From contig WJKK01000001.1 in NCBI GenBank assembly GCA_014729135.1, forward strand, positions 325,462 to 389,461: a stretch of 64,000 nucleotides of DNA, in the 5' to 3' direction. Position 1 is the first letter of the stretch. Each line of letters begins with the position of its first letter. Shown here one piece after another: positions 14,376 to 43,438 of this stretch. This DNA comes from a candidate division WWE3 bacterium (GTDB taxonomy: Bacteria; Patescibacteriota; WWE3; UBA101185; UBA10185). Under the pieces are notes generated by a model. The model was not told the origin of the DNA. It searched no databases and worked only from the letters and a program-made list of their open reading frames with translations. The position numbers were made by a program, and so were the translations under genes.

Positions 14376-14798
14376 ATGGTTGATGTAAAAAATCAGGATC
14401 CGGTTGTCGATTCTGCCGGTGATAAACAGGATGATTCTATTGCTGACTCTTCAACTCCTTCTAAGGGACGTACTTCCGGTCCGCAACCCACTGCTCCTGA
14501 AGGACTAGCATTTCAAGAAAAAAAAGCAGCACCTGAAAAGGAAAAAGGTGTAGAAAAAATAACCGACTTAAAAGTACCCACCCCCAAAGCTTTACAAGAA
14601 GATGACGATGAAGAGGTTATTGACTTCAAAAAAGAAGATCCCGGTGACTCTGTGGGGCGTGTTGTGGACATGCGCTCAAAAACAACAAAAACCAAGCCCA
14701 TTGAAGACCCCCGCCATGAGCTTACCGAATACGGCGATGAAAAAGAAGCTGATTTTATAGAAAAAGTTAAAGCTGCCCATGAATCTAGCGAATCTTAA
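14376..14798 (+). CDS. Acidic low-complexity hypothetical protein, 140 aa
   Basis: ORF only. Its 3' end overlaps the start of the next gene by 20 nt. Confidence 0.4.
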   Translation: MVDVKNQDPVVDSAGDKQDDSIADSSTPSKGRTSGPQPTAPEGLAFQEKKAAPEKEKGVEKITDLKVPTPKALQEDDDEEVIDFKKEDPGDSVGRVVDMRSKTTKTKPIEDPRHELTEYGDEKEADFIEKVKAAHESSES

Positions 14799-17190
14799 TC
14801 ACAGTCTTTATGTAGCTTTTTGGCTAACTGTTTACCTTTTAATTTTGGCGGCTGTCCTTGTGGGTGCTTTTACGGTCTTTTTGCGAAAACGACGTAAAAA
14901 GCACGAGGATTTAAGTAAGTTTGATCTCACTTTTTTAATGGTTAAGCTTCCTTCTGAAAATGAAATTGAAGTGGAGGCAGCGGAACAGTTTTTTGCCAGT
15001 TTGTGGGGTTTTAAGCGTACTTGGTGGGATGCTTTGTGGAAAGGGCAGTATCTGATTTCTTTTGAAATTGTTGCTAAGGCTTCCGGGATTGGTTTTTATG
15101 TAGTAGTTCCTGATGAGTTGGCCTTAGCTGTTGAGAAAAAGATCAATGGAGCCTACCCTGAAGCTGAAATTGACATTATTGATCCTAATGAAGTGTGGGA
15201 TAGAGGTGATTTTACTGCTGTTGCTGAACTAAAGCTTTCCGGAGCACCGTACTATCCTATTCGAACCTTTGAGGATTTAGCTTCCGACGCCTTAAGTTCT
15301 CTGACCTCTTCAATGAGCAAGCTTTCTGACGAAGATGTAGTAGCTTTGCAGTACGTTGTAAAGCCGGCAAGTAACTCCTGGAGGAGACAAGGTAATGCTT
15401 TTGTTGCCGGTGTTAGAAAGAAAAGCGCCGACCCGGAAAAAGGCGGGGGAGTAGATACTTCTTTTGTTGAAGGCGTAGAAAAAAAGGTGTCCAAGCCCGG
15501 ATTTGATGTAACCATCCGAATCGTCTCTATTGCAGAAGATGACTTATTGGCTCAAGATCACATTCAGAATATTGTCACTTCCTTTGATCAGTTTACAGAC
15601 GTTAAATATAACAACTTCAAGCGAATTAATCCTAGAGCGCATAGAACCATAGATAATTTTATTTTTCGAACTATGCGCGTTATTGACTGGAGTATCCCGA
15701 TTTTTGATGTTCCGCTTTATCGCAACGTTTCCGTTTTAAACACAGAGGAGATGGCTACTATTTTTCACTTTCCCAATAATGAGGTTAAGACTCCGGGAAT
15801 TAAATGGCTTAAGGCACGCAAAGCTCCTGCTCCTGAGGATGTTCCAAATGAGGGCCTTTATTTAGGGAAAAATTCTTATCGAGGTGTTGAGCGCAACATT
15901 TATATGAAAGATAAAGATCGCACACGCCACTTTTACATCATAGGTCAGACAGGTACAGGTAAGTCCGAATTTATGAAAACGTTAGCTTTGCAGGACATTG
16001 AAAATGGAGAGGGTTTAGCTTTTATTGACCCGCATGGAAGTGATATTGACGACATTTTAGAAAAGATTCCGGAGCATCGCGCAAATGATGTGATTTTGTT
16101 TGATGTTTCCGATATAGAGCGCCCCCTGGGAATGAACATCTTGGAGGCTCATTCGGAGGAAGAAAAACACATGGTTATTAACTCTTTTATTGCGCTTTTG
16201 TATAAGCTTTATGACCCTAATCGTCAGGGAATTATGGGTCCTCAGTTGGAGCGTGCTATTCGTAACGTTATGTTAACAGCTATGACGGATCCTAATAGTA
16301 CAATGGTTGATGTTTTGCGTCTTTTAATTGATGAGGATTATGCTAAGCAGTTTATTCCTAAGTTGGAAGATCCTATGGTGAAAAGGTTTTGGACGGATGA
16401 GATGGCCAAGACCAGTGATTATCATAAGAGTGAAAAGATGGGCTACTTTGTTTCCAAGTTTGACCGTTTTGTAACGGATCGAACTATGCGAAATATTCTA
16501 GGTCAGCCTAAATCTGCCATTAATTTTCCAAAAATTATGCGTGAGAAAAAGATTTTGCTGGTTGACTTGTCTAAGGGAAAAATAGGTGAGGAGAATTCCA
16601 ATTTCTTAGGTTTAATCTTGGTTCCGCGAATTTTGCAGGCTGCTTTAGGGCGTGCTACTAAGCTTGGTAAAGAGGAGTTTCCTAACTTTTTCTTATACGT
16701 AGATGAGTTTCAAAACTTTGCCACTCCGGATTTTGCCACAATTTTATCTGAGGCGCGTAAGTATAAGCTTAATTTAGTGGTGGCGCATCAGTTTGTTTCG
16801 CAGTTAACGGATGAGATTAAGGAGGCAATTTTTGGAAACGTTGGTACTATGGCTGTTTTTAGAGTAGGCGCTGATGATGCTGAATTTTTAGAGAGTCAGT
16901 TTGAACCTACTTTTACGCAAAGTGACCTAATTAATCTTCCGGTGGGTAATTACTATACTAAGTTGCTGGCTGATGGCCATCCCACGTCGCCGTTTTCTAT
17001 GAAAGTGGATTGGTCTATGGTTAATGAGGCAAATGCTCAAAAAGACAGCAAGCAAGCGCAGGAAATTAGGGAGCGCTCTCGTATGAACTATGGCGTGGCT
17101 CGCACGGAGATAGAGGAGTATATAGATAAGCGTTCAGGTTTGGATGCGCCTAAACCTGAACCCAAGCCTAAGAAGCGAATTCCTTTTTAG
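14779..17190 (+). CDS. Membrane-anchored FtsK-HerA superfamily ATPase, TrwB/VirD4 (type IV coupling protein)-like
   Basis: N-terminal TM helix. Walker A HFYIIGQTGTGKS, followed by AFIDPHGSDIDD and VILFDVSDIERPLGMNILEA, is collinear with the TrwB/TraD NBD. Walker B FFLYVDEFQNF. VVAHQFVSQL resembles the T4CP C-terminal Q motif. Confidence 0.6.
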   Translation: MNLANLNHSLYVAFWLTVYLLILAAVLVGAFTVFLRKRRKKHEDLSKFDLTFLMVKLPSENEIEVEAAEQFFASLWGFKRTWWDALWKGQYLISFEIVAKASGIGFYVVVPDELALAVEKKINGAYPEAEIDIIDPNEVWDRGDFTAVAELKLSGAPYYPIRTFEDLASDALSSLTSSMSKLSDEDVVALQYVVKPASNSWRRQGNAFVAGVRKKSADPEKGGGVDTSFVEGVEKKVSKPGFDVTIRIVSIAEDDLLAQDHIQNIVTSFDQFTDVKYNNFKRINPRAHRTIDNFIFRTMRVIDWSIPIFDVPLYRNVSVLNTEEMATIFHFPNNEVKTPGIKWLKARKAPAPEDVPNEGLYLGKNSYRGVERNIYMKDKDRTRHFYIIGQTGTGKSEFMKTLALQDIENGEGLAFIDPHGSDIDDILEKIPEHRANDVILFDVSDIERPLGMNILEAHSEEEKHMVINSFIALLYKLYDPNRQGIMGPQLERAIRNVMLTAMTDPNSTMVDVLRLLIDEDYAKQFIPKLEDPMVKRFWTDEMAKTSDYHKSEKMGYFVSKFDRFVTDRTMRNILGQPKSAINFPKIMREKKILLVDLSKGKIGEENSNFLGLILVPRILQAALGRATKLGKEEFPNFFLYVDEFQNFATPDFATILSEARKYKLNLVVAHQFVSQLTDEIKEAIFGNVGTMAVFRVGADDAEFLESQFEPTFTQSDLINLPVGNYYTKLLADGHPTSPFSMKVDWSMVNEANAQKDSKQAQEIRERSRMNYGVARTEIEEYIDKRSGLDAPKPEPKPKKRIPF

Positions 17191-17229
17191 TTTGTGGTTA
17201 TTTAGGAGGGGTTAAGTTATTATTTTTGT

Positions 17230-19698
17230 ATGGCAATAAGACGAGCTCAGGCAGAAACAGAACCGGATGGTGATGAGGTTATGACTATAGCTGCAGACGC
17301 TGAGAATGGTCCCGGAACAGACGAGGTCCCAGATTCTGTTGAAGCAGGTGAAACACAGGATTCCCCCGAAAGACATGAGTCAAGTTTAAATTTTGAACGA
17401 CGTGTTATTCCTGATGCTTGGAATGAAACAGCGGAGGCTTTGCGCGCATTGGATGCTCTGGTTGAAGATGTTGATTATGCGGAGGCTATAGAGGCGTTAG
17501 GCGATGCTATAGAAGCACAAGGCATTCGTGCTCAAGATGTATTTGCTTCAGAGACTATGCAGCGCACTTTGGGTGAAAACACTCAACAAGTTCTTTTGGA
17601 ATATCGGCAACAATTTAGGGAGGTTTTAACAGTTGTAAATTCTCTTTCACGTGAGTTAGCGGAAGATGTTGGAGAAGAGGCTCCCGAGGAGGAACAGGTT
17701 GCTCGCGCGGAACGTATTTTAGAGGTTGCACGTTATTTGGGATCGCCCGAAGATGTCCCAGATGCTGAAGTTTTCGATCAAGATAGAGAAATACCCATGC
17801 TAGAAGGTCTTCGAGAAGATTTGTACACCGATCCCGTGGAATTTGCTTCTCAATTTTCGGATTATGCAGAGGAACGTGCTCCCCTTGAAGATATCTCAAG
17901 TCGTCTACATTCACAGCGTAGACAAAGAGTGGAAAAAGTAAATGATCTTGTCCGCGAGTTTGCAGAATATGACGTAGAAGACTTTGTTGATCGCTCCGTT
18001 CCCATTGAAGCTGAAGAGTTTGCTGCAGAAATTGTTGCGGAAGAAACTCCTGAGACTGCCGAAACCGCTCCCAAAACAAAGGAACAGTATAAGGCAGAAT
18101 TCTTAGCCGAAAATGATTTTGATACATGGGATGCTCAAATGGAAGCAGAAGGGGGTTGGGTTATTAATACACAGGGTTATACCCAGGAAGGGGCAAAACA
18201 GGTTGTGGAGGAAAAGGGCTTTTTTAGGAAGCGGACTCGGCAAGTTAGGGCACCTCAGGTTCTTTTTGAGCAGAAAGAAAAAGTAACAATTCCCGCCGAG
18301 TTTACTGATGGAGATGTTGTAAGGACTGTCGAAGTTCCCATTATGTGCGCTACATTTGCGGAGTTGCGTCGAAGAGGTGAGGATATGGGTCTGCTTCCAG
18401 GTGAGTCTTCTCGTTTGGAAGGATATTACCAGCAACCTATTTATACTATGGATACGACGGCTAATTCTGTGGTAAAAGCACAGGAGCTTTTGTGGCGTCT
18501 GGAGGCGGGCGCTGATCCGGATGAAAATGGCCTTCACCGTGTTCCTATAAAAAGAGCAGGTAAGGCATCTTATTTGCCACTGACTTCTGTGGAGTACGCT
18601 CGCTGGAAGCAGGGTCTTCAAAAAACTGTGAATGCCTTTGAGGCTCAGGGTTTAACTTATGAACGTGTGAAAAGATTGCATGAGCGGTTAGCGGAAGAGC
18701 ATGGGGAGCCTCTTTTGGATGAGCCGGGAGTGCGTGATTTGGAGAGCGATTCGTCGCGTGCTTGGTACGCTGCTCATTTGCAGTTTGCTGTTTTGGGAGA
18801 GGGTCTGGATAAAATGGAGGATCTTGCGGGAGAAGCCGATTTATCTGCTGAAGAGGACGAGGCTTTGCGTCATGTAGTTGAAACTTTGCGTTTTGATTAC
18901 AGCGAGTTCTTAGCTGCCTATGGTCGTCGCAGTGAGTATGTGCGTGTGGCTTATGAAAATTTAACTCGAAGAGGTTTAGATTTAAGTCCTGAGAATGTGG
19001 AAAATGAGATTTTGCGAGTAGCAGCCGAATATGAAGCTAAAAAATCCTTATTACGTCGTTTGGGATCTCGTGTTTTAGGTGTTTTGGAGGAGGGAGAGTT
19101 TGATCCCGGGGAGGTACTTGATGATTTGCAAGCTCTTTTGGAGGAGTATGAGGATAATTTAGAGGCTCATGTTGAAGTTTTAGAGGATAATGCTACTTTT
19201 ACTACGGAGCATACCCGTATGGCTTTTACAGCCAATTTGCCTGGTCATGGTAATGTTTTAATTCCTGCGGCTGTTTGGGAAGTTCGGGATTTAGAAGATC
19301 TTAATGCCGCAGATTATCCGGAGGCTTATGCTTTTTATGAAAAGTACCGAGAAAATCCGGATCAGAGTGTTCCTGATTTTATGAAGGCTTTTAGGGAGAA
19401 TACCGAGACTTGGGCTGATATGGAGCGCAAGATTCGGGAAGCAGAGGAAGAAGGTGCCAGTGAAGGTGTAGACACTATTGCACCGGAAGAGCCTGTTGTG
19501 GAAGATTCTCTTGTGGAATTTTTAGAGAAAGATGCCCAAGAGATTAACTCTCTTGGCGAGCTTATAACCCAGGCAGCAACACACCTTGAACAAACTCCTG
19601 CACCCGAAGAAGGTGCTACACAAGAACAGCTCGCCGAATGGTGGAACGACACCCAAGGGGAAACAGAATTTGACGATTGGCTAGCCCAACAAAGTTAG
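17230..19698 (+). CDS. Large hyperacidic hypothetical protein, 822 aa, no TM helix
   Basis: ORF only. Strong D/E excess and visibly higher GC than flanking genes. Confidence 0.5.
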   Translation: MAIRRAQAETEPDGDEVMTIAADAENGPGTDEVPDSVEAGETQDSPERHESSLNFERRVIPDAWNETAEALRALDALVEDVDYAEAIEALGDAIEAQGIRAQDVFASETMQRTLGENTQQVLLEYRQQFREVLTVVNSLSRELAEDVGEEAPEEEQVARAERILEVARYLGSPEDVPDAEVFDQDREIPMLEGLREDLYTDPVEFASQFSDYAEERAPLEDISSRLHSQRRQRVEKVNDLVREFAEYDVEDFVDRSVPIEAEEFAAEIVAEETPETAETAPKTKEQYKAEFLAENDFDTWDAQMEAEGGWVINTQGYTQEGAKQVVEEKGFFRKRTRQVRAPQVLFEQKEKVTIPAEFTDGDVVRTVEVPIMCATFAELRRRGEDMGLLPGESSRLEGYYQQPIYTMDTTANSVVKAQELLWRLEAGADPDENGLHRVPIKRAGKASYLPLTSVEYARWKQGLQKTVNAFEAQGLTYERVKRLHERLAEEHGEPLLDEPGVRDLESDSSRAWYAAHLQFAVLGEGLDKMEDLAGEADLSAEEDEALRHVVETLRFDYSEFLAAYGRRSEYVRVAYENLTRRGLDLSPENVENEILRVAAEYEAKKSLLRRLGSRVLGVLEEGEFDPGEVLDDLQALLEEYEDNLEAHVEVLEDNATFTTEHTRMAFTANLPGHGNVLIPAAVWEVRDLEDLNAADYPEAYAFYEKYRENPDQSVPDFMKAFRENTETWADMERKIREAEEEGASEGVDTIAPEEPVVEDSLVEFLEKDAQEINSLGELITQAATHLEQTPAPEEGATQEQLAEWWNDTQGETEFDDWLAQQS

Positions 19699-19732
19699 CA
19701 AAACCACCCATCCTTTTGTATAATCAACCTAA

Positions 19733-20962
19733 ATGATTAAGCTGCCTTTCCTCAACCTCAGAAAAAACAAAAATCAATCCGAAAACTTTTTGGCAATATA
19801 TCCCGAACCCTTCAAAGTACAGGTGGCTTATTTTGAAGCTGCTAACCCTCCCACGGATGAAGTTCCGCAGGCTCAACTAATTAGCGCTGTCTCAAAGTTT
19901 ATGCCGGAAGATTCCCTATTTCATGCAGGCGATCACTTTAATCAAACTCTGGAAACTACAGAAGCTATTCTGGATGAAATGGCGCAGGAGTATCCCGATT
20001 TACCCACGCAAGTGATATTTGGTCTATCTTCTGATCATTGTATAGATCTAATGTCAATTGCCCGCTTGGAGAATCAAACAAAAAAGCGATTTACGCAGGA
20101 GCAGGTAGAAGAACTAGCTACTCAAGCGCAAAAGAACGCTTCGTTTAGGGCACAGGACATATTGGCAACTCAAAAAGGCGATACGGATACAGACTTGGAG
20201 CTTATAACTTCCGTGGATATTTTTAAAAAGATAGATGGCGCTGTTACGCGGGATCCCATTGGCTTAGAAGGCAAAGAGTTGGAATTTTCGTGGTTTGGTT
20301 CTTTTGCGGAGGCTCCCTATCTTAGGTACCTTCAGAATCTTGCAAAAAAACTGGGCTTAGACATATTGACCGTTTCTTCCCTATCTTATTCCTTTTACAG
20401 CAGCCTACAGGAGCTGGACTCTAATTATCGAAATTGCGTGGTCATCAACTTGGGAACTTCCTTAACGGAGGTGTCTGTGGCTTTTGGGGGAGGCTTAGTA
20501 GGCTCCCGCTTTATTAACATGGGCTTAATTTCTATTTTGAAGCAGATTTCAGCCAAGCTGGAACTGCATTATGAAGAGACTGAACGGGTTTTAGAAAAAT
20601 ATCGCGAAGGTACGCTGGATTCTTCTATCGCAGTAGAAGTTCAAAAAATAGTTCGTCGTTTTTTTGTGGTTTGGTCGCAAGCTTTAAACATGGTTTTCTC
20701 GGATTTTACGGGAATCAAAACTTTCTCTTCACGCGTCCTCTTGGTAGGGCCGGGTTTTGACATTCCCGATTTGGTTGAGCTAACTTCCGTTGAGCCCTGG
20801 TTTAAGTCGATCCCTTTTAAAGCCCCTCCCGAATTTGAAAAAGCCTTAGCCTCGGGTAAACTAACAGAGGTTACGGATATCTCAGGAAAGTCCTCTAAGC
20901 TTTCATGGACGCTTCCCTTGTCGCTTGCTCATGTTTATTTTAAGTTGGAAGAGGACGCTTAG
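19733..20962 (+). CDS. Actin-fold FtsA/PilM-like protein with a degenerate phosphate-1 motif
   Basis: LGLDILTVSSLSYSFYSS...NCVVINLGTSLTEVSVAFGGGLVGSRFINMGL...RVLLVGPGFDIP is collinear with the FtsA C-terminal subdomains. The N-terminal GxDxG loop is replaced by AIYPEPFKVQVAYFEA. Confidence 0.5.
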   Translation: MIKLPFLNLRKNKNQSENFLAIYPEPFKVQVAYFEAANPPTDEVPQAQLISAVSKFMPEDSLFHAGDHFNQTLETTEAILDEMAQEYPDLPTQVIFGLSSDHCIDLMSIARLENQTKKRFTQEQVEELATQAQKNASFRAQDILATQKGDTDTDLELITSVDIFKKIDGAVTRDPIGLEGKELEFSWFGSFAEAPYLRYLQNLAKKLGLDILTVSSLSYSFYSSLQELDSNYRNCVVINLGTSLTEVSVAFGGGLVGSRFINMGLISILKQISAKLELHYEETERVLEKYREGTLDSSIAVEVQKIVRRFFVVWSQALNMVFSDFTGIKTFSSRVLLVGPGFDIPDLVELTSVEPWFKSIPFKAPPEFEKALASGKLTEVTDISGKSSKLSWTLPLSLAHVYFKLEEDA

Positions 20963-20974
20963 TTTTTTACGGGA

Positions 20975-22555
20975 ATGATTTACGAAGTTGCAAAAAATAA
21001 AGACATATATACGCTCCTTTCTGAGTTAGCTACTCGAGGCGAAAGGGATTTGGAGGTTTTTATTCCGGAAGGTGCCTTAATTTTACAAAACAAATTGAAT
21101 TTGCAGTTTTTGTCGGATAGTTTAGAGAAGTTAGGTAAGTCTGTAACCTTTGAGACGGATGATCCAAGGGGGGTAGAGCTTTTGTCTAACATTACAACAG
21201 CGGGTGCAACTGATTATGGAGAGGCTTATGCTTCTTCCGGAGAAGATCAGACTTCTCCATTTTCTCAAGGCATTTTTGCAAAAATTCAGGGAGCACTTCC
21301 TTCTGTTAAGGCTCCTAAAATGCCAAAAATATCGCTCCCCTTATCTCGTTCAGAAGGCAATTCAGGTTTTCGTTTTAAACTAAATTTCATCTTTTTAGGA
21401 ATTGCTGCAGCTGTAATAATTGTTTTAACTTATGGAGTCTATCGCTATGTGTCTTCGCAAAAGGCTTATATAAAAATTGTTACTAAATCTGAGCCCATGG
21501 CGCGAAGTCTGACAATTAGAGTGGATTCTCAGCAGGCCACAAACATAGAGAATAAGATTTTGGAAGGCCGGGACATTTCTACAAGTTTGTTTGAAACGGC
21601 GGAAATTGAAACAACAGGGGAAAAGGTGGTGGGCGAATATGCAGAGGGTGAGATTACGCTTTTTAATGGTACTGAGGAGGAAATTGAGCTTGATGAGGGT
21701 ACTTTGGTTGAGTATAAGGAGGATGATGAGGATTTGGCCTTTGAGTTACAGGATGATGTTACGATTCCGGGCTTTACCTATGAAGTAGCTGAGGATCCAA
21801 CAAGTGACCGCATTTTAGGGGAGGCTTCTGTTTTAGTTAAAGCGGTGAACTATGGTGAGGATTACAACATTTCTGAAGGTGAAATCTTAGAGTTTGACGA
21901 CTACAAAAAGTCTGAACTGGTAGCTAAGTCAAAGGAAGATTTTAAGGGAGGCAGCAGTGAGACAGTTGCTATTGTTTCCGAAGAGGATGTGACCAATTTA
22001 AAAACGGAGGTGGCTAAGGTTTTGGAGGAGAAGGCTGATTCTGCTTTAAAGGATGCAGTTCCCGAAGATTACAAAATGATAGATGGTTCCATGACTTCAG
22101 TTTTGGGTGACTTTGAAATTGATCAAGAAGTAGGTGATGAGGCTGAAAAGATTTCAATTAAGCAGTCGGCTACAGTAACAGGGCTTGCTTATGCCGAGAA
22201 AAAACTGGATCAGTTGATTATGCAGATTGTCGGGGAGTATGTTCCCGATGAGTACGCCCTTTCCGGAACTAAGCACACTTTAAATGTAGAGGTTCTTGGT
22301 GAAACGGAAGATACGGTCTTGAGTGCTACAACGGCAGATTTGCAGGTGACGGTTAAGACTTCGGTGGTTCCTGATATAGATGTTTCAGCTTTAAAGGAGG
22401 AGCTTCAAGGCAAATCTTTGGATGAAGTTCAGCGCCATTTAGGAAGCATGCGCAGTGTGTCTACATATGAATTTAGTTTATCCCCTCCGGTTCCCTTTAA
22501 GACCAATGTTCCCTCTGATACAAATCGCATATTAGTGGAAATTGAGTCGGAGTAG
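20975..22555 (+). CDS. Bitopic membrane protein: 130-aa cytoplasmic N-domain, one TM helix, acidic C-terminal domain
   Basis: Single TM helix FIFLGIAAAVIIVLTYGVY at about residues 130-150. No recognisable domain. Confidence 0.45.
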   Translation: MIYEVAKNKDIYTLLSELATRGERDLEVFIPEGALILQNKLNLQFLSDSLEKLGKSVTFETDDPRGVELLSNITTAGATDYGEAYASSGEDQTSPFSQGIFAKIQGALPSVKAPKMPKISLPLSRSEGNSGFRFKLNFIFLGIAAAVIIVLTYGVYRYVSSQKAYIKIVTKSEPMARSLTIRVDSQQATNIENKILEGRDISTSLFETAEIETTGEKVVGEYAEGEITLFNGTEEEIELDEGTLVEYKEDDEDLAFELQDDVTIPGFTYEVAEDPTSDRILGEASVLVKAVNYGEDYNISEGEILEFDDYKKSELVAKSKEDFKGGSSETVAIVSEEDVTNLKTEVAKVLEEKADSALKDAVPEDYKMIDGSMTSVLGDFEIDQEVGDEAEKISIKQSATVTGLAYAEKKLDQLIMQIVGEYVPDEYALSGTKHTLNVEVLGETEDTVLSATTADLQVTVKTSVVPDIDVSALKEELQGKSLDEVQRHLGSMRSVSTYEFSLSPPVPFKTNVPSDTNRILVEIESE

Positions 22556-30704: not shown

Positions 30705-32651
30705 TTATTGGGAAATTCGAGCACGTTTTTCTTTAATGAAGTTTCTCCACCCTTCCAGAAACTCTATGAATGTGGAGAAAGGCATGTCTACAAGTGTGGA
30801 AAAAAAGACACTTACAAAGTTAAATTCTTTCCATTTGTCGGAAAGCCAACCGCCAATTCTAGCTAAAGGAATTGAGAAGAAATCCAGTAAAAATTCTAAG
30901 ATGCTGGTGCGCTCTTTAATGGAAAGCTCCTTGGATTTTTGACGAATTACCATGGCTGCAAAAACTACAACGGCTACATTTACGGTGTCAATGTAGAGTG
31001 AAGTGAAGGGAACTCCGGCAACCTTGAAAACCCAATAGATTAGGTAAAGTGATCCAAATCCTCCCAGTAAGTACATTACGGTAAAGAAGAAATTCTGGAC
31101 TTTTTTAATCTTTTTACTAAGCTTAATCTTATATGTCTGACGCTCCCCTTCCTTATAAATTATCTTTTTAATCTCTTCTTGAACCCTCTGTAAGTTATCG
31201 TCAGCTGGAGGTCTAATTATGCTAACAAGGAAGAACATTAAGGCCGTAGGAATCATGATGTCTGCAAATACTGCCCAGGCTGAAAATTCTCCATAGAAAA
31301 ACATGGCTACGGGATACTCAAAGATAAATAAACTTGCCGCACCTGCCACAAAAATTGACAATGTCGAATAAAAAGCACTTCTATACAAGCGCTTTTTCAA
31401 TGTTGACAGACGCTTTTCATAGGTTTCTTTTACCACTTGGGCTACTTTTTCAGGCTTTGCCAAGAATTCTTCAAAAGGCGTATCTTCTGTTTTTTCCTTT
31501 TGGATTTGTTTCATGGCGTCTGAAAGAATTAGATAAGCAGCATCATATTTTTCGCAAAGAGCACTAAACTCCCCTCTTTTGGGGTGTTCTAAATCCGCTT
31601 TAGTACTTTGCCAAATAGATTCAATGTTTTCCGTAAACTCCTTAGTAAATTCCAAATTATTTTCTGCAAAAAGAGGATAGCGCTTTTTTAAGACATGAAA
31701 AGTAATTACAGGTTCGTCTAGGTTGTAAAGAGTCCTATGAACGGCAATATAAGTTTGAATGTATTTGTCTTCTTCTGACAGTTTTTCTTCAGGAATAAGC
31801 TTTAAGTTTCCATACATTGCTTCTGTCATGAATTCAAGCATTGCAATGCCTTTATACGGGTAATCAAGGATTTCCTCAATTTCACAAGCAGCCACTTCTA
31901 GGATCCAGTTATAAAATTGCACTTTTGTTTTTATGGCCAGGGCGCTTTCTTTAGCATAAGGGCTGTTTTTTAAGATGTGGATGTACTTTTTAAGAACCAT
32001 TTCTATTTCGTCTATTTTGTCTTCCGGGATTTTTCCGTTTTCAAAATAACCTGTTCTAATGATTTCCAAGGTCATAGGACGTGCTATTTTTGCAGGTTCT
32101 AAGTCGGGAAGTATTGTAATTTCCGAAATTTCTGAAATAAGTCTTCGCTTTAAGATTCTTTCAATGGCTGTCCTTCGAACTAGGTGCTCTTCTTTCCAGT
32201 CAATTACTCGACGCATTTTCTCATAAAGCTTTGCTATTTTTGAGGCTATTTCGTCAACGTGAATGGGATTTTCGGGAGTTTTTTGTTTTTGTTTAACTGC
32301 ATGTTTGTAGTCTTGCAGGTATTTTTGCATTGTAGGGGTAAATGCAGTGTTCTCCCTTTCTTCCTGGTTTTTAGTTGTTTTCTCTGTTGTAGGGGTAAAG
32401 GTAGTGCTCTCTTTTTCTTCGGTTGCTACTGTTGTTGGGGGCAAATCCCTGGTGGTTTCTTTGTTAACTTCGGTTTTTTTAGCTTCCGAGGTAGCTTTTT
32501 GATCGATTTTAGGATCATCTTGCTTAACAGGGCCTTTCTTTGGAGACGCTGAATTCACTCCATTTTTTTGCGCTTTAGAGGCACCTTCAGCACGCTCTTG
32601 GGGGTCTTTTTCCTTGTTGTTATCCTGGTCCAGATAAATTACTCCTTGCAT
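30705..32651 (-). CDS. Hypothetical membrane protein: disordered K/E/T-rich N-terminus, helical middle, multi-TM C-terminus
   Basis: ORF and hydropathy only. Confidence 0.45.
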   Translation of the reverse strand: MQGVIYLDQDNNKEKDPQERAEGASKAQKNGVNSASPKKGPVKQDDPKIDQKATSEAKKTEVNKETTRDLPPTTVATEEKESTTFTPTTEKTTKNQEERENTAFTPTMQKYLQDYKHAVKQKQKTPENPIHVDEIASKIAKLYEKMRRVIDWKEEHLVRRTAIERILKRRLISEISEITILPDLEPAKIARPMTLEIIRTGYFENGKIPEDKIDEIEMVLKKYIHILKNSPYAKESALAIKTKVQFYNWILEVAACEIEEILDYPYKGIAMLEFMTEAMYGNLKLIPEEKLSEEDKYIQTYIAVHRTLYNLDEPVITFHVLKKRYPLFAENNLEFTKEFTENIESIWQSTKADLEHPKRGEFSALCEKYDAAYLILSDAMKQIQKEKTEDTPFEEFLAKPEKVAQVVKETYEKRLSTLKKRLYRSAFYSTLSIFVAGAASLFIFEYPVAMFFYGEFSAWAVFADIMIPTALMFFLVSIIRPPADDNLQRVQEEIKKIIYKEGERQTYKIKLSKKIKKVQNFFFTVMYLLGGFGSLYLIYWVFKVAGVPFTSLYIDTVNVAVVVFAAMVIRQKSKELSIKERTSILEFLLDFFSIPLARIGGWLSDKWKEFNFVSVFFSTLVDMPFSTFIEFLEGWRNFIKEKRARISQ

Positions 32652-37345: not shown

Positions 37346-37422
37346 TGGTCAGAGTGACTGGACTTGAACCAGCGGCCCCCACTACCCCATAGTGGTGCTC
37401 TATCCAACTGAGCTACACTCTG
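37346..37422 (-). tRNA. tRNA-Pro, anticodon GGG
   Basis: Minus-strand 77 nt folds as a cloverleaf: C1-G72 acceptor stem of 7 bp, U8, D-stem GCUC/GAGC with GG in the loop, anticodon stem CCACU/AGUGG, loop AU-GGG-GU with U33 and G37, T-loop UUCAAGU, encoded CCA. Confidence 0.9.
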
Positions 37423-37460: not shown

Positions 37461-37489
37461 TTGACGATTTCGGTTATTCTTCGTATACT
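37461..37489 (+). promoter_or_regulatory. Sigma70-like promoter: TTGACG, 17 nt spacer, TATACT
   Basis: The -10 ends 7 nt before ATG 37497 of the downstream gene, implying a leaderless transcript. Confidence 0.45.
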
Positions 37490-37496
37490 TGATTCA

Positions 37497-38474
37497 ATGC
37501 CTGTACTTATTAACGTATCTTGTACAAATTGTGCCAGGAAGTTTCAAGTCCCCCTAAAAAGATTTAATGAATCCAAGAAAAAGGGCTGGAATTTTTATTG
37601 TAGTAGAGAGTGTCAAGGGGAATGCAAAAAGACCGGAAAAACATTGGTTTGTGACAATCCCGCTTGTTCGAAAACGTTTTACCGTATCAAAAGTGAGATT
37701 AACTCTACTAAAAATTTCTGTTCTCAAAGCTGCGCTGCTTCAGTAAATAACTTGGGGGTTACTAGAAATAAACAAGGTTGTCCTGAGAATTTCAAACGCT
37801 CCTCCTATTCGAGATCTAAACAAGCTAATGGAATATCTGCTCAGCAGCTGCTGTCGAAAAAATGTAGAAATCCTAAATGTGAAAAAAGTGTCCTTTCACC
37901 GCGCATTTATTGTTCCCATGAGTGTCACATGCACTCTGTTAAGAAAACAAAGGTTTACCATCAAGAAAAGGCATTGAAGGCCATTAAAAGTTTTGTTGAG
38001 GAGCACGGGCGCATCCCGTTTAAAAGAGAGGTGCCTGCTATTTACTCTCGCGCTAGGAGGGGTTTTGGTAGCTGGAATAAGGCAATTGAGGTGGCCGGCT
38101 ATAGGAAAAATCCTGTTCGCTTTGCAAAAAGAAAGAGGGCAAAGGATGGTCATATGTGTGACTCTTTTTCGGAAGCTTTAATTGATAATTGGCTAAGCAA
38201 ATAGGGTATTAAGCATGAGATTAATGTTTCCTATCCGGAGGAACCTGCTTTTACAGCCGATTTTGTAGTAAGGGATTATTGGATAGAATTTTTTGGTTTG
38301 CATGGAGAAATGGAAAAGTACGATAAAAACGTTTCAAAGAAGCTGGAAATAGCAAAAAAGTACAAAATAAACTTAATCAAACTTTATCCAAAACACCTCT
38401 TTCCAAAATCACAGCTGGATAGGGTACTTTCGGATGTTTTCTATCACCACGCCAAAGGCTGGGTAGCTCTCTAG
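37497..38474 (+). pseudogene. Multi-zinc-finger protein with a homing-endonuclease-associated repeat and a DUF559/Vsr-like PD-(D/E)xK nuclease domain, interrupted by an in-frame TAG at 38202-38204
   Basis: At least eight CxxC pairs. GRIPFKREVPAIYSRARRGFGSWNKAIEVAGY matches the FGSWxxAxxxAG repeat. Across the TAG the frame continues as SEALIDNWLSK*GIKHEINVSYPEEPAFTADFVVRDYWIEFFGLHGE...NLIKLYPKHL, a single collinear nuclease domain. Confidence 0.55.
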
Positions 38475-41067: not shown

Positions 41068-41709
41068 TTATTTCTTTTTAAACTCAAGCAAAAACATAGG
41101 GCGAGGTTTACCAAAACTAAGTTTTTTACTCCAGCTAGTTTCCAGTTCCTGCAAATCCTCCCGCGTCATTTCCTTAAAATTTTTTAAGGTGAGGCCTGCA
41201 TTTTCATAGCGAGGAATCAGCTCTTCTTTTATGTAAGCTTCATTCAGATTCTCCAAATTTAGACGCTCAGTTTCTGTTGGCTCCTGCTCCTCGGTATAAC
41301 CAAAAACTAACCTAAGATCACCTCCACTTTTCAAAATCGCCAAAATGTTTTGCATATGCTCCTGATTAAAATTGGCCACATGATCCAAAAGACTCCCCCA
41401 AGGAAGCAGCACATTTAGCTTATCTGCAGTATTTTCCAATTCTTCCGGCAACATTTCAGCACTTGCTAAAACAAATAAAACATTTTCCAAATTCTTTCGA
41501 ACTGCTTTTCGGGAGTATTTTCGAAGCTGTTTTTCAACCGGATCAATACCAATGTACAAATTATTTGGTTTTTCTAGAGCTTTTTTGTAAACATAGCGTC
41601 CATTCCCGGTGCCCAAATCCACCTCTATTTTCTCCCACTCCTGTGCCAAAAGCTCCTTAAAGTTCTCTTTAGACAACTCCTTTAATTTATTTCCAATCAC
41701 TATTTTCAT
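41068..41709 (-). CDS. trmB: tRNA (guanine46-N7)-methyltransferase
   Basis: VDLGTGNGRYVYKKALEKPNNLYIGIDPVEKQL is collinear with B. subtilis TrmB IEVGTGKGQF...NYIGIE. Conserved LPW; 213 aa. Confidence 0.7.
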   Translation of the reverse strand: MKIVIGNKLKELSKENFKELLAQEWEKIEVDLGTGNGRYVYKKALEKPNNLYIGIDPVEKQLRKYSRKAVRKNLENVLFVLASAEMLPEELENTADKLNVLLPWGSLLDHVANFNQEHMQNILAILKSGGDLRLVFGYTEEQEPTETERLNLENLNEAYIKEELIPRYENAGLTLKNFKEMTREDLQELETSWSKKLSFGKPRPMFLLEFKKK

Positions 41710-41746: not shown

Positions 41747-42601
41747 ATGACTGAACCTGAAATTATCCCTTTGTGGCAGCCGGTTGGAAATTCCACGCAC
41801 ATAATTGCTTCCAAGGTTGCTAAAAAACTTAACAAAAAAACTTCGCATACAGGGACGTTGGATCCTATGGCAGAAGGGATTATTGTTATCTTAGCCGGAG
41901 AGACGCGCCTAAAAAAGAAGGAGTTGGCTAAGTGGCCCAAGGAATATAAGTTTGACGTGGCGCTTGGCATTTCAACGGATACTTATGATGGTTTGGGGCT
42001 AATTCAGCAGGATTCTTTCTCTATAAAAAATACTTCTAAGTTTTTTTCTCATCGGGAGATTTTTGTTGGCCGAATTAAGCAGGCGCTTTCACGTTTGCAA
42101 GGGGATTATGTTCAGGAAGTACCTCCTTTTAGTGCTATTAAAGTTAGTGGCAAGCCTTTGCACTGGTATGCTCGGAATAAGAATTTGCCAAGAGAGCTTC
42201 CAAAAAGATCAGGCGAGATATTTGATATAGAGCTTTTGGATTTTAAAGAGGTTTCACTTCAGAATCTTATTTCAGATTTGTTGGAAAAGATTTCAAAGGT
42301 TACGGGGGATTTGCGTCAGGGGGAAATTGCACCTCAGTGGAGGGATTTCGCAGGCCTCCGTGAAAAATCAAAGGATGTAAGAATTCCGATAATTTCGATT
42401 CGGGCAACTCTTTCCAAAGGTCTTTATGTTCGGTCACTTTCTCAAGATATTTGTGGCCTCATAGGAGTTAAAGGTTTTGTTTCTAATTTGGTTCGAACAC
42501 GTAATGGCAGTTTCCATCGTGAGAACTCTTTAAGTTTAGAGGAGTTTTTTGGATCAGGCTTTCGGGACAAGTATGATTTTGTTTCTCGATTTAAATCCTG
42601 A
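41747..42601 (+). CDS. truB: tRNA pseudouridine55 synthase
   Basis: HTGTLDPMAEGIIVILAGE is the catalytic Asp motif of TruB. Confidence 0.85.
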   Translation: MTEPEIIPLWQPVGNSTHIIASKVAKKLNKKTSHTGTLDPMAEGIIVILAGETRLKKKELAKWPKEYKFDVALGISTDTYDGLGLIQQDSFSIKNTSKFFSHREIFVGRIKQALSRLQGDYVQEVPPFSAIKVSGKPLHWYARNKNLPRELPKRSGEIFDIELLDFKEVSLQNLISDLLEKISKVTGDLRQGEIAPQWRDFAGLREKSKDVRIPIISIRATLSKGLYVRSLSQDICGLIGVKGFVSNLVRTRNGSFHRENSLSLEEFFGSGFRDKYDFVSRFKS

Positions 42602-42790
42602 CTTAATTTGGAGGTGTGTTTTGGGGACTTCAAAGTAGTCGCCAAGTAGTTCCAACATTTCCTCGTTAGCCTCTCCGTTTTTAGGTAAAGATTTCACACG
42701 CACCACATAAACTACGTTTCCATACATATCCGTTTTTTCTTTAACACCGCTTTCCTTTGCTCCCGGCTTAATCTTGACTCTAATTTTCAT
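42554..42790 (-). CDS. DUF167 (YggU/UPF0235) family protein
   Basis: MKIRVKIKPGAK...VRVKSLPKNGEANEEMLELL...QIKSGFKSRNKIIL is a canonical DUF167 sequence. It overlaps the truB 3' end convergently by 48 nt. Confidence 0.6.
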   Translation of the reverse strand: MKIRVKIKPGAKESGVKEKTDMYGNVVYVVRVKSLPKNGEANEEMLELLGDYFEVPKTHLQIKSGFKSRNKIILVPKA

Positions 42791-42797
42791 ACCCTCA

Positions 42798-42934
42798 AGG
42801 ATGATCCTCCGTTAAATTCCATCTTTAATCTTATTAAAGGCTTTTCTCTCTTTATTTTCAAGGATAATCCTTCACAACTTTTCTAGAAATGCTTTATTGG
42901 AAGGGATTCGCTTAAAAACTTAAAGGATGATCCT
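42798..42934. promoter_or_regulatory. Array of three 11-bp palindromes AGGATnATCCT, phased exactly 63 bp apart; candidate operator array
   Basis: aggatgatcct at 42798-42808, aggataatcct at 42861-42871, aggatgatcct at 42924-42934. Each is preceded by AA. They lie in the divergent region between the DUF167 gene (-) and the 43073 gene (+). Confidence 0.55.
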
Positions 42935-43072
42935 TGTTCACCATGCTTGGGTCTTGAAAATACTTACAAAGGTGCTATAGACTATCTACTTGTGACATGC
43001 GATCCGTCAACAAAAAATTGCAAGCAAAAATTTAAATCAAAAAAATTAACAAATAAAGAAAGGAACTAAAAA

Positions 43073-43438
43073 ATGTCAAAAAGAGATATGGCACAAAGAA
43101 GAATCCGAATTATAAACGAGCTCAAAGCGGAGTTAAAAGAATTAAAAGGTCATCGCAAGGATATTTTGGAGGAAGATCCCGAATACTCCGAGCTTAAAGA
43201 ACAGTCCAAACTAGTTAAAGATCAAACACGTACAAAGCGTAAGCAGGTTTTGGATGCTCCCGAGTATAAAGCAGTGACAGATCAAATGAGCGATATTAGG
43301 GCGGAAATTCGCGATCAAAAAGAAGCTCTTTCACAGGAATTAGTTGAACTTTACAAAGAAGAGGGGGTTACCGAAATAGAGGACTCTGAGGGTAATTTGA
43401 AGAAGTTGAAGTTTAGTGTTCAGTTGGTTAATGCTTAA
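43073..43438 (+). CDS. Coiled-coil hypothetical protein (121 aa)
   Basis: ORF preceded by the RBS aaaggaac; heptad-rich K/E sequence. Confidence 0.45.
   Translation: MSKRDMAQRRIRIINELKAELKELKGHRKDILEEDPEYSELKEQSKLVKDQTRTKRKQVLDAPEYKAVTDQMSDIRAEIRDQKEALSQELVELYKEEGVTEIEDSEGNLKKLKFSVQLVNA

Follow-up and report, generated by a model that had tools for sequence, protein, structure and literature searches.

What might a short palindrome do that recurs three times, at an exactly repeated distance, between two genes of a bacterium with few recognisable regulators? The stretch of DNA analysed here (the window) spans 64 kb of the genome of an uncultured candidate division WWE3 bacterium, a member of the candidate phyla radiation (CPR), and all coordinates are window positions. 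CPR bacteria, or Patescibacteria, have tiny genomes with very few recognisable transcription factors, and the control and organisation of their transcription are nearly uncharted. The array of palindromes sits in a 282-bp region between a DUF167 gene on the minus strand and a divergent operon on the plus strand, whose first gene starts at 43073 (Table 1). We suggest that the three palindromes are DNA-level sites for one putative symmetric DNA-binding protein, either homodimeric or of higher order, and we give this proposal an even chance of being right.

An exceptional array of symmetric sites

The three sites are real, statistically exceptional and individually symmetric. The 11-mer AGGATNATCCT has three exact matches in the window (42798-42808, 42861-42871 and 42924-42934), whereas dinucleotide-preserving shuffles of the window yielded a mean of 0.07 and a maximum of 1, with three or more in 0 of 100 shuffles. 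Start-to-start distances, which equal centre-to-centre distances, are 63 and 63 bp, or 6.0 helical turns each. The symmetry extends beyond 5+1+5 to 6+1+6, with the consensus AAGGATNATCCTT and the central bases G, A and G in sites 1, 2 and 3. No further site with up to one mismatch occurs elsewhere in the window. A search allowing up to two mismatches returned 5 matches against 4.8 expected, which places the two extra matches at chance level. Other regularly spaced repeat arrays were not found in the window. The first-pass annotation had described three 5+1+5 inverted repeats starting at 42798, 42861 and 42924, exactly 63 bp apart in a divergent intergenic region, two of them carrying GATC. The positions, spacing and location are all borne out, the repeats are in fact 6+1+6, and GATC is found in sites 1 and 3. 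As had been stated, 139 nt separate the end of site 3 from the 43073 start codon, and the 8 nt given between site 1 and the DUF167 start is accurate as a coordinate difference of the 11-mer, the 13-mer lying closer (Table 1).

Only the sites recur, not the DNA between them. No similarity links the two spacers, whichever orientation is compared (z=1.1 forward, z=0.4 as reverse complement), Tandem Repeats Finder reported nothing at 42797-42935, and a repeat finder showed the units to share only the core and a few flanking bases. The array is thus not a tandem repeat or minisatellite, since similarity over whole units is absent. A CRISPR array was also rejected, as only about 13 nt are common to the units, there are three copies, and a 23-nt register is just 70-78% identical. 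No cas domains were found among the window open reading frames (ORFs) scanned, and Rfam matches to CRISPR direct repeats near the array were far under threshold and located elsewhere.

Table 1. Coordinates of the array, the flanking genes and the promoter elements in the window
Feature	Position	Strand	Description
DUF167/YggU-family gene	42554-42790	-	78 aa; Pfam PF02594, E=2.6e-19; TIGR00251
Site 1	42797-42809	strandless	AAGGATGATCCTC; 12/13 palindromic; right end 6 nt from DUF167 ATG
Candidate weak -10 CATCCT	42798-42803	-	inside site 1; 7 nt upstream of DUF167 ATG; putative
Spacer 1	42810-42859	strandless	50 nt; internal palindrome CTTTAAT-ctt-ATTAAAG at 42823-42839
Site 2	42860-42872	strandless	AAGGATAATCCTT; perfect 6+1+6 palindrome
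Spacer 2	42873-42922	strandless	50 nt; holds TTTCTAGAAA at 42882-42891
Site 3	42923-42935	strandless	AAGGATGATCCTT; perfect 6+1+6 palindrome; 18 nt upstream of plus-strand -35
-35 hexamer TTGAAA, 43073 operon	42954-42959	+	invariant across six WWE3 relatives
Extended -10 TGcTATAGA	42973-42981	+	hexamer at 42976-42981; 16-nt spacer from -35
121-aa helical (coiled-coil) protein	43073-43438	+	first gene of plus-strand operon

Probable promoters on both sides of the array

The plus-strand operon comprises the genes for the 121-aa protein and a SurA_N-like protein, followed by mutL and tatD. The 121-aa sequence is identical to that of a hypothetical protein encoded on an 864-kb contig of a candidate division WWE3 bacterium. 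Its promoter is of the sigma-70 type, TTGAAA-N16-TGcTATAGA, and is invariant in an alignment of the window with five related WWE3 loci, which were fetched via homologues of the 121-aa protein. Transcription of this operon probably starts at about 42988-42990. Because the invariant promoter lies downstream of site 3, this site is predicted to fall outside the plus-strand transcript. The leader of the 43073 gene would be about 84 nt long, some 40 nt longer than in relatives, due to the insertion of a 13-nt A-rich tandem repeat of 2.9 copies (43011-43049).

The DUF167 gene starts next to site 1 and is convergent with truB. The 3' ends of truB (plus strand) and the DUF167 gene (minus strand) overlap tail-to-tail by 48 nt (42554-42601), and no terminator-like hairpin was detected in 42500-43300. 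On the DUF167 side, the promoter signature comes from two array-less relatives, L001 and L007, where TAAAAT-N7-ATG marks a leaderless promoter. The right half of site 1 falls at the position of this leaderless -10. The simplest reading is that the array would lie between two divergent start points, with site 1 over the DUF167 core promoter. Given the plus-strand promoter downstream of site 3 and the leaderless -10 in relatives, the array DNA is probably non-transcribed.

Conservation and selection in WWE3

Orthologous arrays occur in three more distant WWE3 lineages. One species, represented by L004, L005, L006, L123 and L130, carries three sites (AAGGATTATCCTT, AAGGATTGTCCTT and AAGGATCGTACTT) spaced 65 and 65 bp, beside a protein 64% identical to its window counterpart. 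L011 has two sites 81 bp apart, one of which, AAGGACAGTCCTT, has changed in both halves with its symmetry kept, and L013 has two degenerate sites at 65 bp. The window locus thus compares with these as three near-perfect sites at 63 and 63 bp. Site 1 lies 6-7 nt from the DUF167 ATG in the window, L004, L011 and L013, and the central bases are T, T and C in L004 and A and A in L011. The nearest relatives, L001 and L007 (80-82% protein identity), are without the palindromes. No array was found outside this locus in about 60 kb of WWE3 relatives. A metagenome scan with a DUF167 profile returned five loci, one of them close and identical to L004, and three further contigs held no new orthologous array.

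The sites have been retained to a degree that the DNA between them has not. Comparing the window with L004, 32 of 36 site positions are identical, against 59 of 111 columns of the optimally aligned spacers (Fisher p=7e-5), which supports purifying selection on the sites relative to the spacers. Spacer 1 retains weak residual homology with its L004 counterpart (z=2.5), and spacer 2 shows no similarity (z<0), yet measures 50 nt in the window and 52 nt in L004. The difference in identity, together with a spacer length kept despite sequence turnover, indicates that both site sequence and spacer length are under constraint. The first-pass annotation had suggested a comparison with related genomes, which shows the sites kept relative to the spacers and the array lost from L001 and L007. 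Overall, the array is conserved yet dispensable, overlaps the DUF167 start region, and is not position-locked to the plus-strand promoter.

Some features of the orthologous loci stand apart from the array in the window. The last spacer of the orthologues contains a conserved block, TATAATACA...TTTCC...GGAAACC (L004 2866-2917, L011 2857-2902, L013 430-478), which forms an inverted repeat of GGTTTTCC and GGAAACC and has no counterpart in window spacer 2. Public gene calls give DUF167 proteins of 113-119 aa (L004 2536-2877, L011 2576-2935, L130 439-780), the ORF extending upstream through the array. In an alignment with the homologues of 78-85 aa, the true start falls at the internal MK(S/T)IKVKIKPG, and the public calls are probably too long.

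The same architecture in a Saccharibacteria genome

The same architecture exists in another CPR lineage. A genome collection was scanned for two AGGATNATCCT sites 51-81 bp apart, and all counts given are among the matches listed. Spacings peaked at 65 bp (at least 18 pairs) and 63 bp (at least 7 pairs), and nearly all of these pairs came from one Saccharibacteria metagenome-assembled genome (MAG), CAZHSR01. Its arrays have the form (C)AAGGATWATCCTT(G), with A or T (W) as the central base, in 2-4 copies, mostly three, spaced 65 bp and sometimes 63 bp. They are intergenic and dense, with several arrays per 8-kb block, or about one every few kb in the blocks fetched (L015, L027, L047, L051, L067, L078, L092, L113, L114 and L116). 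Extended -10 hexamers (TGnTAnnnT) follow 2-19 nt downstream of the outer sites and are themselves placed 6-9 nt ahead of the ATG in leaderless genes, in many cases on each flank of a divergent pair. The flanking genes share no function and include those for a glycosyltransferase, a methyltransferase, a radical-SAM enzyme, a 5'-3' exonuclease, an integrase, ribosomal protein L10 and a solute-binding protein.

The 65-bp units of CAZHSR01 point to DNA shape rather than to RNA structure. The units are weakly similar to each other, apart from two near-identical paralogues. Their consensus is dyad-symmetric, and optimising the orientation of units hardly raises its information content. They carry A/T tracts with a period of about 10 bp, at a power reached by 0 of 1000 within-spacer shuffles, a control that makes no correction for the shared descent of the units. 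Left and right spacer halves are no more complementary within a unit than between units (p=0.76). RNAalifold on 18 related units returned only a trivial site-to-site helix, with neither spacer structure nor covariation. This pattern suits DNA bent or wrapped between occupied palindromes, not hairpins. Two other readings of the Saccharibacteria spacers were ruled out, a sigma-54 reading of a TGGCAC motif by its spacing and small ORFs by early stops.

The window array has its 13-mer, period, typical copy number and position between divergent promoters in common with the CAZHSR01 arrays, and we regard it, with the caveats set out below, as the same kind of element. It is then one member of a broader class of phased palindrome arrays, dispersed in at least one further CPR genome. 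Random scatter of the motif, or its membership in an element repeated at many loci, had been named beforehand as evidence against a regulatory array. Within the window the locus is unique, and in CAZHSR01 the motif forms a dispersed multi-locus element. Such dispersal means that a private operator of a local regulator is not the whole story. Neither viral contigs (no array match) nor the searchable literature (13-mers not found in 8 million full texts) extended the distribution, and nothing relevant was found in the literature on Saccharibacteria palindromes, DUF167/YggU or Patescibacteria LexA motifs.

The scan also recovered repeats of other kinds. A MAG labelled Pseudomonadales, CAZRWP01, contains an 86-nt dispersed composite of four GGATSATCC palindromes spaced 31-11-31, of the form AAGGATCATCCTTGCC-N16-GGAAGGATCATCCTAGGATGATCCTTC-N16-GGCAAGGATGATCCTT and in both orientations (L021, L025, L030, L036, L045 and about 20 more loci). 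It looks like a repeat of the miniature inverted-repeat transposable element (MITE) type, or of the type formed by repetitive extragenic palindromes (REP) and known as REPIN, that shares the 13-mer by chance. In the Bacteroides MAG CALUIQ01, AGAGGATYATCCTMT recurs every 22 bp in four to five copies in an iteron-like manner (L046 261-361, L081 319-397 and L019 2259-2337).

A proposed protein-bound array and the points against it

In the proposed mechanism, the putative protein would occupy the array of about 140 bp and fill the non-transcribed space between the divergent units. Site 1 would cover the DUF167 core promoter and start, and occupancy should shut DUF167 off. Site 3, just upstream of the 43073 -35 hexamer, could modulate or insulate that promoter. 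A spacing of about six turns, kept while the spacer sequence decays, suggests that the bound units contact each other rather than act independently, and the intervening DNA might be bent or wrapped. We infer protein binding, DUF167 repression and DNA wrapping from the arrangement and conservation of the sites. A free central base within a site that is symmetric on its own is typical of recognition by a dyad-symmetric protein, not of RNA pairing between sites. The idea of a cooperative dimeric regulator raised by the first-pass annotation is the best supported of the mechanisms considered. It gains from site symmetry, selection and spacer length, and loses from the failure of strict phasing and of the search for a regulator.

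That search covered the flanking proteins and the rest of the window. Neither Pfam, NCBIfam nor PHROGs gave a DNA-binding domain in the DUF167, 121-aa or SurA_N-like proteins. The DUF167 protein matches only PF02594 and TIGR00251, and a PDB sequence search with its profile returned only uncharacterised or hypothetical proteins. For the 121-aa protein, no family in Pfam, NCBIfam or PHROGs scored above threshold. Its AlphaFold2 model (mean predicted local distance difference test score, pLDDT, 84.7) shows three long helices and a beta hairpin, and Foldseek matched it to no fold in the PDB at E<5. Both flanking genes persist in relatives without the array. A local autoregulatory operator of a divergently encoded regulator was rejected on these grounds, as neither flanking protein is DNA-binding and both genes outlast the array. 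No classical transcription factor was found in the window, where the sole helix-turn-helix (HTH) protein is RodZ-like with an HTH_25 domain. The window is otherwise of housekeeping character (nusA, infB, pnp, RNase J, ftsK, rpoB, rpoC, rpsL, rpsG and tuf).

Several observations weigh against the proposed protein-bound array. No candidate regulator was found among the window proteins. The DUF167 promoter is not established, its minus-strand core being placed by analogy with L001 and L007, and no stronger minus-strand promoter was detected for DUF167, with no TG extension and no usable -35. The absence of the array in L001 and L007 and the decay of the sites in L013 indicate that it is dispensable. 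Spacings of 65/65, 65 and 81 bp in the orthologues break strict helical phasing, and they qualify the earlier claim that all sites lie on one face of the helix, as the exact phase is not conserved. The gap between site 3 and the -35 hexamer is 18 nt in the window against 3-4 nt in orthologues, a shift of about 15 bp, which speaks against site 3 as an activator site held at one position for the 43073 gene. The link to Saccharibacteria rests on one MAG among the matches listed, and unrelated repeat families also carry AGGATNATCCT, such that part of the resemblance could be coincidence.

A broader form of the proposal would make the array one instance of a hitherto undescribed CPR chromatin or insulator system. 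Mostly three-copy AAGGATNATCCTT arrays with a period of 63 or 65 bp would be wrapped by a conserved symmetric protein oligomer, which would take up about 140 bp of promoter DNA and silence or insulate adjacent, often divergent promoters, at a single locus here and at a large share of the intergenic regions of some Saccharibacteria. We put this forward tentatively, as somewhat unlikely to hold in full. A selected cis element at one WWE3 locus that recurs at many Saccharibacteria promoter regions would offer an experimentally tractable handle, and a 13-bp bait might lead to a DNA-binding protein that acts globally in these uncultured bacteria. If the array is only a local operator, it would be an ordinary though clean multi-site operator for DUF167, a gene of unknown function.

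Alternative explanations

The main rival, which we judge unlikely on balance, is a dispersed CPR repeat akin to MITEs or to REPs and the bacterial interspersed mosaic elements (BIMEs) that they build. Short palindromes in regular clusters would then be maintained or propagated by recombination or by an enzyme dedicated to the task, the family would be abundant in some genomes and nearly extinct in the window genome, and any effect on DUF167 would be incidental. The occurrence of the same palindrome and period at many unrelated CAZHSR01 loci with no functional theme is what such a family would produce, as are the huge difference in copy number between lineages and the loss or decay of the array in close WWE3 relatives. 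The weak likeness among CAZHSR01 units and the pair of near-identical paralogues point the same way. Against this stands the single array in 64 kb, with none beyond this locus in the relatives. The array is also orthologous, fixed relative to the DUF167 ATG over deep divergence, and its sites are selected. REPs are defined by stable hairpins, for which a palindrome of 13 nt is not long enough; the conserved unit of 13 (at most 15) nt allows no more than 5 bp of stem around a 3-nt loop. The window furthermore shows no GTAG-type head, no target-site duplication, no transposase-like Pfam match and no gene for a REP-associated tyrosine transposase (RAYT), and viral contigs gave no match. Should this explanation prove true, the array would represent the first REP/BIME-like repeat family described for CPR.

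A regulatory RNA appears quite improbable. A long DUF167 leader starting near the plus-strand promoter would contain all three palindromes, and alternative pairings (3:2, 2:1 or 3:1) would hide or expose the ribosome-binding region by site 1. The minimum free energy (MFE) fold of the minus strand does pair site 3 with site 1 in a helix extending over the start codon, and a weak minus-strand promoter-like match, TTGACG-N18-GATAGT, is present at 43010-42981. However, the MFE z-scores of the two strand folds (-1.21 and -0.76) are not significant against shuffles, and the leaderless -10 seven nt from the ATG in array-less relatives suggests a very short DUF167 leader. The central bases G, A and G mismatch in every site-to-site pairing, and pairing would need complementarity between sites, not a palindrome at each site. 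All symmetry deviations in L004 and L011 are A-to-G and would give G-U pairs if read on the plus strand, but this is not the strand of the DUF167 mRNA. The Saccharibacteria units show no covariation. Rfam gave no family at gathering score, the best hit at E<=10 being a spurious microRNA match of 22 bits against a threshold of 86. A known structured RNA (riboswitch, leader or small RNA) was rejected given no Rfam match, insignificant folds and no covariation in the Saccharibacteria units. A sponge for CsrA, suggested by the resemblance of CAAGGAUG to the core obtained for CsrA by systematic evolution of ligands by exponential enrichment (SELEX), was likewise rejected, as conservation extends to both palindrome halves and the GGA would be taken up in base pairs.

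Far less probable still is that each palindrome is a symmetric, bidirectional -10-like element and the array a group of weak divergent promoters instead of an operator. GATNAT can be read on either strand, the A2/T6 geometry of GATNATC is that of -10 hexamers overlapping on the two strands, and NATCCT lies 7 nt before the ATG. The window has CATCCT, L004 AATCCT and L011 TATCCT where L001 and L007 have TAAAAT. The most conserved bases, AAGG and CCTT, are left unexplained by sigma-70 recognition, though, and bona fide promoters in these genomes take the form TGnTAnnnT or TTGAAA-N16-TATAGA. Sites 2 and 3 would be left with no gene to drive, and neither a TG extension nor a usable -35 accompanies the elements.

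A neutral remnant of an old tandem duplication, whose 63-bp unit would leave equal spacing, or a chance cluster is effectively refuted by the 0.07 sites expected, by spacers that are unrelated while the sites are perfect, and by sites conserved against diverged orthologue spacers. A replication origin or terminus was also rejected, as GC skew remains positive throughout the window and does not inflect near 42.8 kb; of the DnaA box TTATCCACA, the sites match TTATCC alone.

Other features of the window

A gene at 41068-41709 on the minus strand matches NpmA-family 16S rRNA (adenine1408-N1) methyltransferases (PF24675, E=1.4e-59), which are of the aminoglycoside-resistance type. The gene is syntenic by truB and DUF167 in all WWE3 relatives fetched, and because of this synteny it resembles a housekeeping gene there more than a resistance gene that was acquired. 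A run of large genes with little or no annotation occupies 14779-22555 on the plus strand. The first (14779-17190) encodes a HerA/DUF87 and TraG/TraD-like ATPase and is followed by three genes without Pfam match, whose products measure 822, 409 and 526 aa. Together they may form a module akin to those for secretion, conjugation or competence.

A 34-nt direct repeat, 85% identical and with 57-nt spacing, lies at 32330-32420 inside a minus-strand ORF of 648 aa (30705-32651) that has no Pfam match. The window starts with a gene for a Fic/DOC-domain protein (47-787). A protein with the homing-endonuclease-associated HNH_repeat domain is encoded at 37461-38204, adjoining tRNA-Pro(GGG) at 37346-37422.

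Comparison with known systems

To our knowledge, the motif and its 63- or 65-bp period match no described system, and likenesses are partial in each case. Fur, Zur and PerR boxes and the MatP site matS (GTGACRNYGTCAC) share the 6-1-6 or 7-1-7 geometry around one free base, and Fur-family boxes also share a central AT-N-AT. The half-site is AAGGAT here, in contrast to TGATAAT, TCGTAAT or GTGAC in those systems, whose boxes are also not known to form equidistant 63-bp triplets. A Fur-family 7-1-7 box (consensus TGATAAT, TTATAAT or TCGTAAT) was rejected as an identity for the sites; the 6-1-6 geometry is compatible, and AAGGAT agrees with the consensus just at the two bases that adjoin the centre.

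REP/BIME elements and REPINs resemble the array as short palindromes in regular intergenic clusters, in copy numbers from few to hundreds, and with vertical inheritance and decay. They differ in being imperfect palindromes of 20-40 nt that form stable hairpins, with a GTAG head, alternating orientation, short fixed linkers and an associated RAYT; the array, which lacks a GTAG, displays none of these traits. Plasmid centromere arrays, such as F sopC with 12 units of 43 bp around a 16-bp palindrome bound by SopB, or the R1 parC iterons, are alike in a palindrome at fixed period, less conserved filler and one nucleoprotein complex over the whole array, which for the WWE3 array would be the proposed state. 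Unlike these, the WWE3 array has no adjoining parA/parB-type genes, a period of 63-65 instead of 43 bp and three units, and it is chromosomal and promoter-associated.

Looping operators (LacI O1/O3, GalR OE/OI, DeoR and NagC) likewise combine identical palindromes with distances of integral turns (63 bp being 6.0 turns) and a spacing conserved independently of the spacer sequence. Known loops, however, measure 92-113 bp or longer and join two operators through a tetrameric LacI/GalR-family protein. The array instead consists of three equidistant sites, the orthologues are spaced 65 and 81 bp, and the window has no LacI/GalR/DeoR-family gene. In the OR1-OR3 operators of phage lambda, bound by CI and Cro, the sites are 17 bp long and about 23-24 bp apart rather than 63. 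The lambda regulator is a divergent gene encoding an HTH protein, whereas the flanking proteins here are without a DNA-binding domain, and the present sites, unlike those of lambda, recur at many loci of another genome. Both systems nevertheless place three symmetric sites between divergent units, with outer sites that overlap or abut the core promoters, as seems probable for the present array, and in both cooperative occupancy would be expected.

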